Positions 12,048 to 52,241 of a stretch of DNA of 64,000 nucleotides are shown piece after piece. The stretch's first letter is position 1; every line of letters starts with the position of its first letter. This DNA is from a virus (lineage: Duplodnaviria > Caudoviricetes), in the IMG/VR virus record IMGVR_UViG_3300037780_000034, positions 96,001 to 160,000 of that record; one strand, given 5' to 3'. The translations under genes and the position numbers were made by a program. The notes below the pieces were generated by a model. That model was given only the letters and a program-made list of their open reading frames with translations. It was not told the origin of the DNA and made no database searches.

Positions 12048-12319
12048 ATGAAACTGATATACAAAATATGGCAGATACTGTTAATACGTGGTTGCAAGAA
12101 GCACCAGAACGTGATAAAATGCTTTTTGTAAAATCTACTAAAAAAGAATTAATAGTATATCATAATACGCTTGGAAGAAAAATTAGAAATTATTTTGAAT
12201 TGTGGAAAAATGAATATACTCCAATTATAGAAAACGGGATAGATATCTCTGAAAATCATCCAGATCAAATAAGTATGAAAGTAATAGAAAAAGTATGGGA
12301 AATGAATAAAAATGAATAA
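12044..12319 (+). CDS. Hypothetical protein
   Basis: ATGA-coupled start at 12044. Confidence 0.55.
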   Translation: MNETDIQNMADTVNTWLQEAPERDKMLFVKSTKKELIVYHNTLGRKIRNYFELWKNEYTPIIENGIDISENHPDQISMKVIEKVWEMNKNE

Positions 12320-12821
12320 TGCAATTATTATGGCAGGAATTCCAGGTAGTGGTAAAAGCACCATTCGTGAAAAGTTTATTAAAAAACTTGATGATTTTGT
12401 TTTTATATACAGCACGGATGATTATATTGAAGATATAGCAAATATACAAGGATCATCTTATAATGATGTCTGGGATACTTATATTCGTGAAGCAACAGAA
12501 ATTCAAAATCAACGACTTGCTGATGAAATATCAAAAGGAACAGATGTTCTTTGGGATCAAACAAATGTTTCTGTTAAAAAAAGAAAATGGGCTATCTCTA
12601 AATTTCCAAAATATTACTCAATAAAATGTGTATGTATTGTTCCTCCACGTAATAAAGATGAAGAAAACGAGTTGTTTACCAGACTAGAAAATAGAAAAGG
12701 AAAACACATACCAAATCATATTATTGCAAATATGATTAATAGCTTTGCAATTCCTGAAAAAATTGAAGGTTTTGATGAAGTTATATTATATAATATATAC
12801 GGAGATAAGATAAATGAGTAG
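12312..12821 (+). CDS. P-loop kinase (AAA_33 / polynucleotide kinase-like)
   Basis: GIPGSGKST, STDDYIE, WDQTN. Confidence 0.75.
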   Translation: MNNAIIMAGIPGSGKSTIREKFIKKLDDFVFIYSTDDYIEDIANIQGSSYNDVWDTYIREATEIQNQRLADEISKGTDVLWDQTNVSVKKRKWAISKFPKYYSIKCVCIVPPRNKDEENELFTRLENRKGKHIPNHIIANMINSFAIPEKIEGFDEVILYNIYGDKINE

Positions 12822-13383
12822 AGATATATGGGTTAGTAGTGATTTGCACTTGTTTCACAGTAATATTTTAACTTTTACAGATTCGGAAGGAAAAAAAGTT
12901 CGTCCAGAATTTTCTAATGTAAAAGAAATGAATGAACATATATTGGAAATGCATAATTCTGTTGTAAAGAAAGGAGATATTCATTATTGTTTAGGCGATG
13001 TATTCATCGGTGATCGTGAAGAATTTAAAAAGTTTTGGCCAAAGTTTAATGGCAGTAAACGTTTGATCGTGGGGAATCATGATCACATAAAATTTTTATC
13101 TACTGGTGGATTTTTTAATAAAATTCAAATGTGGCGTATGTTTCCTGAATTTGGGTTAATGTTTAGTCACGTTCCTTTGCATACTAGTTCTATGATGAGA
13201 CACGTAGACAAAACAAAAAGTTATGCAGAAGGATGCAAGGTTCTATACGGAATCCACGGACATATACATCAAAATAAAAGTCCAGAAGGCCCATATCGTA
13301 ATGTATCAATGGAGGTTATAAATTATACACCAGTTCACATTGAAGATTTAATACAAGAAGCAAAAAATTATTTTAAGGATTAA
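12814..13383 (+). CDS. Calcineurin-like metallophosphoesterase
   Basis: SDLH, LGD, GNHD, HVP, HGHIH. Confidence 0.85.
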   Translation: MSRDIWVSSDLHLFHSNILTFTDSEGKKVRPEFSNVKEMNEHILEMHNSVVKKGDIHYCLGDVFIGDREEFKKFWPKFNGSKRLIVGNHDHIKFLSTGGFFNKIQMWRMFPEFGLMFSHVPLHTSSMMRHVDKTKSYAEGCKVLYGIHGHIHQNKSPEGPYRNVSMEVINYTPVHIEDLIQEAKNYFKD

Positions 13384-38689: not shown

Positions 38690-39109
38690 ATGAGAAAATA
38701 TTTAAATATTGTAGAAGCTTCAAACAAAGGATGTCCACCAGCTACACAAGATATTGATTTAAATCTAAAAAATCGTCAAAAAGCAATTGACGAATATCAT
38801 TATGGTCCAGCTAACCCAGACAATCCAGAAAATTATTGGAAAGATGCAGCAAAAAGATGGAATATCACTGAAAAAACTGCAAAAACAATGACTTGTTCAA
38901 ATTGTGCTGCATTTGACGTTAGCGATAAAATGTGGGATTGTATCACAAAAGGAATTGAAGGCGATAATAAAGATGTAGACTCTCTTGCTACTATTCATAA
39001 AGCCGACTTGGGATATTGTAACTTTTTACATTTTAAATGTGCAGGAACAAGAAGCTGCACAGCTTGGGTAACTGGTGGAGCAATAGACGACAAAGATAGA
39101 ACTAAATGA
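38690..39109 (+). CDS. Cys-rich late protein with LxE-type leader
   Basis: MRKYLNIVEA; CSNCAAF...GYC...FKC...RSC..W; TATAAATA at 38658. Confidence 0.7.
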   Translation: MRKYLNIVEASNKGCPPATQDIDLNLKNRQKAIDEYHYGPANPDNPENYWKDAAKRWNITEKTAKTMTCSNCAAFDVSDKMWDCITKGIEGDNKDVDSLATIHKADLGYCNFLHFKCAGTRSCTAWVTGGAIDDKDRTK

Positions 39110-39750
39110 AACTAATAAAAACAAATGAACAATTTAATCCAAATCCATATTTGTCAACTCCTATAGATTTAGAATTAGTTAAGAATTTAAAATTAACTGA
39201 TTTTGACAAAGATGGATATGAAGTTCCTTCTCCACTGGAACAACTTCATTATGAAGCACAAGGTGTAGAATTAAATAAAGAAATACAATATCATATAGCA
39301 CCAGTTCAACCTTGGTATTATGATGAAGAATCCAGTGAAAAAGAATTAGTGTTGGATCATTGTATGATATTGACACGTTGGGAATTTTCAGGTGAAGCAA
39401 GAAAACAATTAGAATATGTAGCAAAGCAAAGACCAATACTAAATAAATTGCTCGGCATTAAACACAAATGGGGCATAGACTTTAGTTTAGATTGGATAGA
39501 CGATACATACTGTATGGAAATAATTCATATAGAACAAGACTTTTTCAATATTGATGAAGCAAATGATGCAAAACAAAAACTTGAAAATATAATAGAAACA
39601 ACTGATTGGAAACAAGGCGCAAAAGACCTTATCACTATAAAATCTAAATGGATAGATTTAAATTCTGATGACCAAAGCGATTTTAAAGCAAAGTTTTTTG
39701 GTTGGGACAGAGCATTTAACAATAAAAAAGTTTTTTCATTTTTTTCATAA
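39106..39750 (+). CDS. Hypothetical protein
   Basis: 214-aa ORF. Confidence 0.65.
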   Translation: MKLIKTNEQFNPNPYLSTPIDLELVKNLKLTDFDKDGYEVPSPLEQLHYEAQGVELNKEIQYHIAPVQPWYYDEESSEKELVLDHCMILTRWEFSGEARKQLEYVAKQRPILNKLLGIKHKWGIDFSLDWIDDTYCMEIIHIEQDFFNIDEANDAKQKLENIIETTDWKQGAKDLITIKSKWIDLNSDDQSDFKAKFFGWDRAFNNKKVFSFFS

Positions 39751-40811: not shown

Positions 40812-40933
40812 TGCATCGTAGCTCAGAGGTAGAGCAGGTGACTGTGGATGCTAAAGGTCATAGGGTCAGTTCGATTCTGACAGCATCAACCGTAATCACT
40901 TGGTCGCAGGTTCGATCCCTGCCGATGCAGCCA
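40812..40933 (+). tRNA. tRNA-Asn(GTT) interrupted in the anticodon loop by a 47-nt tRNA-minihelix insert (40846-40892)
   Basis: Removing the insert gives GGTGA-CTGTTAA-TCACT; G73 and CCA present. Confidence 0.75.
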
Positions 40934-41516: not shown

Positions 41517-41645
41517 AGGATCATTTCCGCAATATTTTACTTTGCATCAGAAGCACGTGTTTGCAGGTTCAAGTCCTGCCTCCCCAACCATAATAATTGA
41601 CGGGGAGTAGGCAAATGGTAAAGCCGCGTTAAGTAATATGATCCT
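41517..41645 (+). tRNA. Circularly permuted tRNA (anticodon CAG) in WCMGCAA scaffold
   Basis: 3' part 41544-41590 (ends CCA) precedes 5' part 41601-41629; rejoined stem CGTGC/GCACG. Confidence 0.7.
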
Positions 41646-41756
41646 GTTATATACTACAGGCTAACTTTTGGGGGTTAGCTTGGTGTTACAGAAGTATAGG
41701 AAATCATTCGGAACCAAATAATGCCTATACCATTTTACGGTTCCAGCAAAACACAG

Positions 41757-42543: not shown

Positions 42544-42617
42544 GGCTCTATTGCATTGTGGAATGCAGCGGCTTCTAACCCCGTTTCAAGCAGGTTCGAC
42601 TCCTGTTAGGGCCACCA
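42544..42617 (+). tRNA. Arg-type tRNA body with ambiguous anticodon (CTA in canonical register, TCT in shifted register)
   Basis: GCGGC-TTCTAAC-CCCGT; A20; CCA. Confidence 0.7.
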
Positions 42618-43337: not shown

Positions 43338-43394
43338 AGGATGATTACCGCAAAATTAATAAACTTTTTTTTGGTAAAAGCAGAACATCATCCT
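43338..43394 (+). ncRNA. WCMGCAA-scaffold RNA carrying a bare Gln(TTG)-type anticodon stem-loop
   Basis: AGGATGA/TCATCCT; CTTTT-TTTTGGT-AAAAG. Confidence 0.6.
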
Positions 43395-43407
43395 GATTGT
43401 GTATTGT

Positions 43408-43805: not shown

Positions 43806-43863
43806 AGGATGACTTCCGCAAAATTATGCATTTGACCGTTAATCAAAAAAGCAAAATCATCCT
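43806..43863 (+). ncRNA. WCMGCAA-scaffold RNA carrying a bare Asn(GTT) anticodon stem-loop
   Basis: AGGATGA/TCATCCT; TTTGA-CCGTTAA-TCAAA. Confidence 0.6.
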
Positions 43864-44026: not shown

Positions 44027-44467
44027 ATGAGTGATTACTTCAAAAATTATATGAACTTAACAAAAGAAAACAGACAAAGACACTTAGATATATCTTCACC
44101 TTGTGAAGAACGTGGTGGGAATAGCACAATATATAGAGGAGTCCTTGCTCAATATTTAAACACTCCTATCCCGATGGGTAGGATAGCAGTTCTGGCTCAC
44201 GCATGTAACAATAATAAATGTTCTAATCCACAGCATTTATATTGGGCGACAGACAGAGAGAATATAGTAGAAGATGGAAAAAAGTTTGGAACTTTTAAGA
44301 GTGTTTGGGAACGAATGGTAGACAAGCACGGTTATGAAGAAGCTTGTAGGCTACAAGCCAACGGTGCCCAATCAAAGGCAGGACAAGGAAACAAAGGTAA
44401 ACGAAAGTCTGAAGAACATAAGCGCAAAATATCCGAATCTTTAAAAATAAAAAATAGAAAAGAATAA
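44027..44467 (+). CDS. HNH homing endonuclease with NUMOD3-like tail
   Basis: HACNNNKCSNPQHLYWAT.REN; KSEEHKRKISES. Confidence 0.75.
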   Translation: MSDYFKNYMNLTKENRQRHLDISSPCEERGGNSTIYRGVLAQYLNTPIPMGRIAVLAHACNNNKCSNPQHLYWATDRENIVEDGKKFGTFKSVWERMVDKHGYEEACRLQANGAQSKAGQGNKGKRKSEEHKRKISESLKIKNRKE

Positions 44468-44538: not shown

Positions 44539-44661
44539 AGGATCATTACCGCAATTTTATTTGCATTTCCAGCCGTAGATGCAGGTGCAATTCCTGCTCA
44601 CCCTACCAATATAAATTATGGGGTGATCGTCTAATAGTAGGACAACGTATAATATGATCCT
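44539..44661 (+). tRNA. Circularly permuted tRNA-Glu(TTC) in WCMGCAA scaffold
   Basis: 3' part 44563-44608, 5' part 44620-44647; rejoined stem ACGGC/GCCGT; Glu-type D arm. Confidence 0.72.
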
Positions 44662-44697
44662 GTTCTTTAAAAAAAAGAAAGTTAATTTAAGTTTTTT

Positions 44698-44815
44698 AGA
44701 TTATGTTCAGCAAACCATATAAATTATATGAAAGCCTATCAACGTTGCCGGAAGGCCCGTATGGCAAACCCAGTTTTCGATTTTCTGGTTCTATAAAAAA
44801 GTAGACACATAATCT
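44698..44815 (+). ncRNA. WCMGCAA-scaffold RNA with long-variable-arm-like and T-arm-like hairpins
   Basis: AGATTATGT/ACATAATCT; TTCAGCAA. Confidence 0.5.
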
Positions 44816-44823
44816 GTAATAAT

Positions 44824-46568: not shown

Positions 46569-46652
46569 AGGAATATTTCAGCAAATTTATCTTGGATAAA
46601 ACATTGTTCTCAAAAACAAAGTGAAGTGGTTCAAATCCACATCAATATTCCT
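46569..46652 (+). ncRNA. WCMGCAA-scaffold tRNA mimic (D-like, anticodon-like and T arms; no CCA)
   Basis: AGGAATAT/ATATTCCT; TTGTT-CTCAAA-AACAA; GTGG-TTCAAAT-CCAC. Confidence 0.55.
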
Positions 46653-46663
46653 GACTAATATCT

Positions 46664-46773
46664 TGGAACATTACCGCAACTATAACATAAACAATGGGTT
46701 ACAGGTTCAAATCCTGTCTTTTACAGTTTGTAAAAGTAGTTCAATGGTAGAACAATTGTCAAAAAATGTTCCA
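46664..46773 (+). tRNA. Degenerate circularly permuted tRNA (anticodon CAT) in WCMGCAA scaffold
   Basis: 3' part ~46684-46725, 5-nt linker, 5' part 46730-46759; GTAAAAG/CTTTTAC acceptor; no encoded CCA. Confidence 0.6.
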
Positions 46774-46782
46774 GTATTTTAT

Positions 46783-48701: not shown

Positions 48702-48777
48702 TGGTAGAAGGGAAATTGGCGACCGACCGCACTTTGAATGCGTGTTATTGTAAGTTCGAATCTTACTCTACCAACCA
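48702..48777 (+). tRNA. tRNA-Gln(TTG)
   Basis: CGCA-CTTTGAA-TGCG; U1-A72. Confidence 0.85.
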
Positions 48778-51148: not shown

Positions 51149-51367
51149 TGGATCAGTTCAGCAAACAATATTTCCGTGAAAAGGACCGTGACGGTGGTGC
51201 AAATCCGCCCTTCCCCGCCACAGATACACTATGACAACATAGACGGGTTAATCGCCGTAGGAACGAAGCAGTTTCCAAACCAACGATAGGAAGAGTTTGT
51301 CGTCTTCTGTAGTGTATCTTTGACGGGGAAGTAGCTCAGTTAGTAGAGCAGGTAAAAAGTTGATCCA
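51149..51367 (+). tRNA. Circularly permuted tRNA-Phe(GAA) in WCMGCAA scaffold; linker holds another hairpin RNA
   Basis: 3' part 51174-51220, 5' part 51325-51353; rejoined 76 nt with stem GGTCC/GGACC. Confidence 0.75.
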
Positions 51368-51368
51368 G

Positions 51369-52152: not shown

Positions 52153-52241
52153 AGGGGTGCGCCAACGTTGGAGTGTTGGGCTGGTCTCCAAAACCAGTGT
52201 TTGAAAAAACTTAGTGAGTTCGAATCTCATCACCTTTGCCA
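52153..52241 (+). tRNA. tRNA-Trp(CCA) with long variable arm
   Basis: CTGGT-CTCCAAA-ACCAG; G73. Confidence 0.85.

Follow-up and report, generated by a model that had tools for sequence, protein, structure and literature searches.

To our knowledge, the only tRNA introns attributed to bacteria and their phages belong to group I and splice themselves. Group I introns are about 200 nt or longer, carry a catalytic core (P3-P9) with a G-binding site, and occur in bacterial, plastid, and phage genes, among them the anticodon loops of tRNAs such as cyanobacterial tRNA-Leu(UAA). Archaeal and eukaryal tRNA introns, canonically at position 37/38, are cut by EndA/Sen at a bulge-helix-bulge (BHB), in which a 4-bp helix separates two 3-nt bulges, and the exons are joined by RtcB or Trl1; some in archaea harbor a small RNA with a function of its own, for example the C/D box RNA of the tRNA-Trp intron. 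RNase P and RNase Z can free tRNA-like modules from longer RNAs, as with mascRNA from MALAT1, engineered tRNA-gRNA arrays, and the permuted tRNA genes of Cyanidioschyzon, and phage T4 repairs tRNA that has been cut by PrrC with Pnkp and Rnl1, the latter sealing broken tRNA-Lys. We know of no bacterial system in which protein- or RNase P-dependent cutting and rejoining of a tRNA has been shown.

Closest to the locus analyzed here are the "enigmatic" introns that Devoto et al. 2019 (PMC6784885) described in the tRNAs of Lak megaphages, one of which "may itself encode a tRNA." These introns are 79-114 nt long and consist of a 5' hairpin, an A-rich spacer, and then a T arm on an acceptor-like helix (Table S6 of PMC6784885); they lie near positions 36/37-37/38 of Tyr, Phe, Thr, and Gly tRNAs and terminate roughly at the discriminator, and alleles with and without the intron exist (PMC6784885). 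Devoto et al. 2019 was the only mention of such introns that a full-text literature search returned, and no paper on their mechanism was found. An earlier note on this DNA had proposed "a new kind of tRNA intron," which overstates the case, since tRNA-like introns had already been noted in Lak phages; the insert in the present gene is a minimal variant of that barely described class.

An interrupted tRNA-Asn gene in a phage tRNA array

The gene lies in a stretch of 64,000 nucleotides (hereafter the window) that comprises bases 96001-160000 of an IMG/VR virus record of 317,722 bp (~30% G+C; completeness estimate, 85%) from pond metagenomes. According to ARAGORN and Rfam, a tRNA array of about 26 genes, including a CUA suppressor, occupies 40.8-54.5 kb of the window. 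Rfam RF00005 recognizes 40812-40933 as a full tRNA (54.5 bits, E 1.6e-11, above the gathering score of 29 bits), aligning 40812-40930 with model positions 1-71 and finding 50 nt where three anticodon-loop positions are expected. ARAGORN in default mode does not call the gene, and in intron-permitting mode it returns a 75-nt tRNA with a 47-nt intron in a register 2 nt too far left, which gives Thr(CGT). Since any 47-nt excision leaves a 7-nt loop, the register was set by comparison with uninterrupted genes. Eleven uninterrupted phage tRNA-Asn genes on other IMG/VR contigs (L001-L011) have the loop CTGTTAA and share with this gene the D arm, the GGTGA anticodon stem, U1-A72, G73, and CCA. Removing 40846-40892 is the only excision that restores CTGTTAA, so the body is that of an Asn tRNA and the boundaries are unambiguous; what remains has GUU in a CUGUUAA loop, G73, and U1-A72. 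Judged by its sequence, 40812-40933 is thus a complete tRNA-Asn(GUU) gene apart from an insert between U35 and U36 (Table 1). The earlier note had described a 47-nt insert at 40846-40892 that splits the GTT anticodon after GT, whose exact removal restores the loop, with a G73 that fits Asn, and the 11 uninterrupted genes uphold all of this.

Contigs from three runs of three studies cross the insert, which is real DNA. Folded alone, it reaches -13.4 kcal/mol (z = -2.5). Neither blastn nor the covariance models described below found a second copy of it in the genome, and the idea of a repeated mobile element was dropped; against Rfam at E<=10 its sole match was tRNA, with no ribozyme, Intron_gpI, or other family. 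The insert stem and the acceptor stem of the tRNA share GATGC/GCATC, and we considered an origin by copying of the tRNA's own acceptor stem; this was rejected, as the same insert stem recurs in relatives whose acceptor stems are unrelated to it.

Table 1. Parts of the interrupted tRNA-Asn(GUU) gene, in window coordinates
Feature	Position	Strand	Remarks
5' exon, tRNA-Asn(GUU)	40812..40845	+	From the Rfam alignment; acceptor 5' strand, D arm, anticodon stem 5' strand, loop C32 U33 G34 U35; D arm and anticodon stem identical in uninterrupted genes
Mini-tRNA-shaped putative intron, 47 nt	40846..40892	+	Between anticodon positions 35 and 36
Unpaired G	40846	+	Invariant; precedes the acceptor-like stem; would be +1 of the mini-tRNA
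Acceptor-like stem, 5' strand GATGCT	40847..40852	+	Pairs with 40882-40887; compensatory changes in 4/6 family pairs
Linker, 12 nt, with conserved AAAGGT motif	40853..40864	+	GG at 40856-40857
T-arm mimic, stem GTCAG/CTGAC, loop TTCGATT	40865..40881	+	4/5 stem pairs covary in the family
Acceptor-like stem, 3' strand AGCATC	40882..40887	+	Directly adjoins the T stem, as in a tRNA
3' tail AACCG, 5 nt	40888..40892	+	Family form A-A-N-N-G; final G invariant
3' exon	40893..40933	+	U36 A37 A38, anticodon stem 3' strand, variable loop, T arm; ends with acceptor 3' strand, G73, and encoded CCA

Several other elements of the array were noted. The CUA-anticodon tRNA (amber suppressor type) at 42544-42617 suggests readthrough or recoding of TAG in part of the genome. 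Default ARAGORN also misses a tRNA-Gln(UUG) at 48702-48774 (Rfam match, 36.5 bits) and a class-II-like tRNA-Trp(CCA) with a long variable arm at 52153-52237 (35.7 bits with the Rfam Sec model). The sole Phe tRNA seen in the record, at 51149-51368, is apparently a circularly permuted tRNA-Phe(GAA), in which the anticodon loop and the 3' half with CCA are followed by a 104-nt structured spacer and then by the 5' half up to position 29; its acceptor strands, GGGGAAG and CTTCCCC, are exact complements. Repeated cassettes (41517-41646, 43338-43400, 43806-43863, 44539-44662, 44698-44820, 46569-46660, and 46664-46774) share a terminal stem that covaries, AGGAUNAU... / ...AUNAUCCU, with the motif YCMGCAA after it, and enclose tRNA-like or anticodon-hairpin modules; the cassette at 46673-46778 has a weak Rfam match to YrlA (Y RNA-like; 31.5 bits, E 0.002). 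A small ORF within the array (44027-44467) shows weak similarity to HNH / His-Me homing endonucleases (E about 0.002-0.004) and recalls the free-standing endonucleases of phage tRNA clusters. Synteny via the upstream ORF at 39106-39750 identified one relative (L022), which carries no tRNAs.

A family of inserts and the selection on their host genes

Homologues were sought by pattern scans of IMG/VR, JGI metagenomes, and GTDB genomes and then with two covariance models. This yielded 12 distinct homologous inserts of 45-50 nt, every one between positions 35 and 36 of a CUNU/UAA loop. Ten are hosted by tRNA-Asn genes with many different acceptor stems, one by the tRNA L027, and one by a tRNA-Lys(UUU) (L038:3311); the anticodon is GUU in 11 of the 12 and UUU (Lys) in the other. 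L027:1952-2090, in genome G002, is a second interrupted GUU tRNA in that genome, with a long-variable-arm (class II) body and a U discriminator. Most insert-bearing tRNAs belong to jumbo-phage arrays, and several lie in complete genomes of 162-315 kb. Among GTDB genomes the strict insert patterns gave zero matches, and a looser pattern gave one true member, L047, whose tRNA array had been binned with a Kapaibacterium MAG, the rest being chance matches. ARAGORN calls members of the family Thr or His. Because default tRNA finders miss or mislabel these genes, the tRNA complements of jumbo phages, and the codon-supply inferences drawn from them, are systematically incomplete.

On the alignment of the 12 sequences, 92% of the cells in the two helices are paired, and both-sided changes occur in 8 of the 11 pairs. 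The covariation score is 0.751 versus 0.196 for shuffled partners (none of 500 shuffles reaches it), and slid partners score at most 0.15. On the strength of covariation in both helices, the insert is an acceptor-like stem stacked on a T arm, as the earlier note had read it from the GATGCT/AGCATC stem of a single copy. Eleven members have the T loop TTCGAWT, and the Lys member has TGCGAAT. Throughout the family the first position is an unpaired G, the first pair is G-C, and the T stem adjoins the acceptor-like 3' strand. Nearly all members have GG in the linker; in four larger members this GG lies in the loop of a small D-arm-like hairpin, which fits an elbow mimic. The linker GG is accordingly named here as a candidate mimic of the D-loop G18-G19, which would dock on the T loop. 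The tail has 5 nt in every member and the form A-A-N-N-G, mostly AAAAG, and both U35 before the insert and the terminal G47 are invariant (12/12). The ACCG ending, which the note had singled out, is present in this copy and peculiar to it; as a CCA-like feature of the family it does not hold up.

Two further kinds of element were encountered during these searches. In the related jumbo phages G002 (L053 and L054) and G004 (L057), other tRNAs have anticodon-loop inserts of 24-36 nt that form a simple hairpin and lack a T arm; the register is ambiguous, and with it the anticodon, so that L057, for example, could be a UCA suppressor or Leu(UAA). At L016:2700-2860, and likewise on L017 and L019, a long terminal stem encloses three hairpins that resemble T arms; ARAGORN miscalls this elaborate tRNA-like element as an intron-bearing tRNA-Arg.

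The exons of these genes appear to be maintained. A strain in run X3 that is about 98.5% identical has the insert unchanged, and within the gene it differs at just two positions, C40814>A and G40927>T. These bases pair with each other as 3-70 of the acceptor stem, so that C3-G70 becomes A3-U70 by compensatory change. Acceptor stems differ at most pairs among members yet stay paired, with U1-A72 and G73 in nearly all. Judged from such substitutions, the insert-bearing tRNA genes are under purifying selection. The claim that no other intact Asn tRNA lies in the window extends to the whole 317.7-kb record (estimated 85% complete), in which ARAGORN and Rfam found no other GUU tRNA. For the complete genomes G002-G005, every region with an Rfam tRNA match was fetched and reannotated; each genome has a near-complete tRNA set in which the sole GUU tRNA is interrupted (two in G002, both interrupted), and the only Lys(UUU) tRNA of G004 is likewise interrupted. 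Asn is the fourth most used residue in the long ORFs of this phage, accounting for 7.4% of codons, mostly AAT. Splicing is not strictly needed in arrays L016, L032, and L040, which have intact Asn tRNAs in addition to the interrupted one.

By exon similarity, the genes closest to this one are intact ones of other phages (88.9%), above any other intron-bearing gene. Genes with and without the insert thus interleave, a pattern to be expected if the element is gained or lost precisely. An apparent intron-less allele in run X2, a joint that skips 40846-40892, did not survive scrutiny: over 41 nt the 151-nt contig has 6 mismatches, its 5' half is different, and by its sequence it is a foreign tRNA-Asn, no allele of this phage. 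From the alignments and substitutions described above, it is almost certain that the tRNA gene is live and that the insert in it is conserved, structured, and functional. For a conserved structured element inside a tRNA gene under purifying selection, "intron" is the best reading, and the insert is probably spliced out of the transcript. We also lean towards the fuller statement that it is a genuine conserved intron and belongs to a family of 45-50-nt, mini-tRNA-shaped elements that always interrupt NUU-anticodon tRNAs of large phages between U35 and U36.

Proposed excision and resealing, and rival explanations

At 47 nt and without a ribozyme match, the intron is too small for self-splicing, so proteins or RNase P would be needed and the genes imply a protein- or RNase P-dependent pathway of cutting and rejoining. 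RNase P, RNase Z, and other enzymes that act on a tRNA read its top half, or elbow; bacterial RNase P prefers U at -1 and G at +1, and its RNA binds an RCC tail. Cuts of the RNase P type leave 3'-OH and 5'-P ends, which are substrates of Rnl1- and Rnl2-type ligases. We tentatively propose, as a possibility to which we give appreciable but less than even weight, that the insert, whose removal would be required for a working tRNA, is excised in the following way. The elbow of the mini-tRNA (T loop and linker GG) would recruit host RNase P, which would cut between U35 (-1) and the invariant G (+1) and leave the 5' exon with a 3'-OH. A second nuclease, measuring from the same minihelix, would cut after the invariant G of the tail and leave a 5'-phosphate on U36, and a phage ligase for 3'-OH/5'-P ends (Rnl1-like or Rnl2-like) would then seal the anticodon loop.

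Sequence features of an RNase P substrate are present in 12/12 members, namely U(-1), G(+1), and a single-stranded 3' tail of 5 nt, and since U(-1) and G(+1) are invariant, the bond that RNase P is predicted to cut is also the 5' splice site. In the members parsed, 12 stacked layers run from the T loop to +1, counting a G.A layer: position +1 faces A, giving a G.A mismatch in place of the Watson-Crick 1-72 pair. An ACC that matches RCC is found in the tail of the window copy only. The 3' splice site is the weakest point of the model with RNase P and a 3' nuclease. It lies at mini-tRNA position "76," 3 nt past the discriminator rather than at an RNase Z site, and we know of no bacterial enzyme that cuts after position "76" on an AAG tail. 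The idea of a tRNA mimic processed by tRNA-maturation enzymes, put forward in the earlier note, has thus gained from the linker GG, the U(-1)/G(+1) boundary, and the 12 layers and lost at the 3' boundary, 3 nt past the canonical RNase Z site. By analogy, the Lak introns would also argue against the RNase P route, as the 5' end of their minihelix lies inside the intron, away from the 5' splice site.

Candidate genes for the sealing step exist. This genome encodes one Rnl1-like and one Rnl2-like RNA ligase (the latter on L013), and among the complete intron-bearing genomes the Rnl2 family is found in 4/4 and Rnl1 in 3/4; RtcB is found in 0/4. Since Rnl ligases are common in jumbo phages, this co-occurrence is weak, merely permissive evidence. 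The Rnl1-like gene (L012:1324-2464; 83.1-84.2 kb of the genome, outside the window) is split across two reading frames as two overlapping ORFs, with the adenylyltransferase part in one and a part weakly matching T4_Rnl1_C in the other. The Rnl1-like gene of G004 has the same 205-aa open frame, which covers about the first two thirds of the profile (positions 1-160 of 227), so the split may not be an assembly error but reflect a gene in two pieces or a conserved frameshift. Searches of this phage genome found no RtcB, Ro/TROVE, EndA (PF01974), or RNase Z-type (Lactamase_B_2) gene. Within the window, an ORF of 169 aa (12312-12821) has an AAA_33 / Zeta-toxin-like P-loop kinase domain and by that domain may be a polynucleotide kinase; Pfam gave no match for the ORF that follows (12814-13383).

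The insert could be a true intron that is excised by a dedicated, unrecognized phage or host endonuclease and not by RNase P with a 3' tRNA nuclease, a reading that we consider unlikely. Tail nucleotides A44-N-A46-G47 could pair with loop nucleotides U35-N-U33-C32 in a 4-bp helix that places the splice sites immediately 3' of both strands, with two-fold symmetry and beside a 3-nt UAA bulge, such that a dimeric nuclease could cut both. In its favor, tail A44 and G47 are invariant and A46 is present in 11/12 members, opposite the invariant U35, C32, and U33, and the short T-arm-less hairpin inserts of G002 and G004 hint at a more general endonuclease. If the ends produced were 2',3'-cP/5'-OH, a phage kinase and Rnl1 would be needed, as for T4 Pnkp/Rnl1 or yeast Trl1, and the AAA_33 kinase-like ORF at 12312-12821 together with the Rnl1-like gene and its weak T4_Rnl1_C match would suit that requirement. 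Covariation lends the helix no support, however, since its exon strand is fixed and the family does not maintain complementarity between positions 45 and 34; a dedicated nuclease would also leave the conserved, full mimic of the tRNA elbow unexplained, the phage has no EndA-type endonuclease, and the bulge polarity is reversed relative to the archaeal bulge-helix-bulge. Somewhat less probable again is the shielded anticodon that the earlier note gave as its alternative, in which the insert is never removed and the 122-nt RNA is a tRNA mimic or decoy with a masked anticodon, while host tRNA-Asn serves translation. Such a decoy could absorb a host anticodon nuclease or a tRNA-binding defense protein aimed at Asn/Lys tRNAs, and Asn(GUU) and Lys(UUU) tRNAs are indeed classic targets of anticodon nucleases (colicin E5 and PrrC), which counts for this reading, as do the intact Asn tRNAs that some arrays keep next to the interrupted one and the richness of the array in noncanonical tRNA-like RNAs (permuted cassettes and a weak YrlA-like match). 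Yet a decoy needs no U36-A37-A38, no G73, and no CCA, which several members have, nor an insert whose length and position restore a perfect 7-nt loop in 12/12 members, and five genomes with near-complete tRNA sets would oddly miss just Asn, the fourth most used residue.

Two other explanations fare much worse. That the gene is dead, through chance insertion or partial tRNA duplication, or is an assembly artifact is effectively refuted: the insert is single copy in the genome and its stem resembles the acceptor stem of the tRNA (GATGC/GCATC), both of which count for this reading, but it is present in three runs of three studies, there are 12 same-site homologues with covarying helices and with exons held by compensatory changes, and the resemblance to the acceptor stem is absent in relatives with other acceptor stems. 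Least credible of all is a remnant or partner of a group I intron that is spliced in trans by a ribozyme core encoded elsewhere. U35 before the insert and the invariant terminal G, similar to omega-G, would suit it, and group I introns are already known from bacterial tRNA anticodon loops, whereas 47 nt leave no room for a catalytic core, there is no Intron_gpI match at E<=10, the 5' splice site has no U.G pair, and no trans-acting core was identified.

We retain the RNase P, 3' nuclease, and ligase route as our working proposal. In its most extended form it would amount to a third tRNA-splicing pathway in bacterial cells, run by large phages, in which the ends of a mini-tRNA are the splice sites, RNase P, a 3' nuclease, and an Rnl-type ligase do the work, and a family specific for U35/U36 of Asn and Lys tRNAs is precisely spread or lost among arrays, possibly as a timing or anti-defense switch; we hold this picture to be slightly less likely than the route itself. 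If it is true, the intron may act as such a switch for tRNAs that are hit by host anticodon nucleases. The family offers a compact substrate for work on these ideas, with a 122-nt transcript, defined predicted cleavage bonds, and candidate ligases in the same genomes.

Comparison with known tRNA introns and tRNA repair

Group I introns resemble the present element in lying inside a bacterial-type anticodon loop, in the U that ends the exon and the G that ends the intron, and in their patchy presence. The U/G boundary occurs in 12/12 members, which is insufficient for membership of group I, and a catalytic core is absent; unlike group I introns, the element has 47 nt, the shape of a tRNA top half, and no Rfam intron match. 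With BHB introns it would share the logic of protein-dependent excision and ligation, but it differs from them in its 35/36 position, its bacterial setting, and the lack of an EndA or RtcB gene. The BHB fold is not formed either: 3 exon nt separate the 3' splice site from the anticodon stem, and the polarity of the bulge is reversed.

As in mascRNA-type modules, an embedded tRNA-shaped element would set its own excision points; there, however, the flanks stay unjoined, whereas here they are the two halves of an anticodon loop and would need ligation. The T4 repair system is comparable in using a phage Rnl1-type ligase on an anticodon-loop break, and genes of the Rnl1-like, Rnl2-like, and kinase-like types occur in the present phage. 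What is mended in T4 is damage done by a host defense nuclease, in contrast to the programmed excision proposed here.

The Lak introns are nearest. No sequence similarity between them and this family was seen when the two were compared by eye using Table S6, and the likeness is one of architecture: both are short, non-group-I inserts in anticodon loops of huge phages, in which a T arm is followed by an acceptor-like 3' strand and the 3' splice site falls a few nucleotides past the acceptor-like helix. Unlike in the Lak introns, the site here is always 35/36, the hosts are Asn and Lys tRNAs of aquatic phages, and the whole intron of 45-50 nt is a mini-tRNA that has neither 5' hairpin nor spacer and ends at its own +1 and "76."
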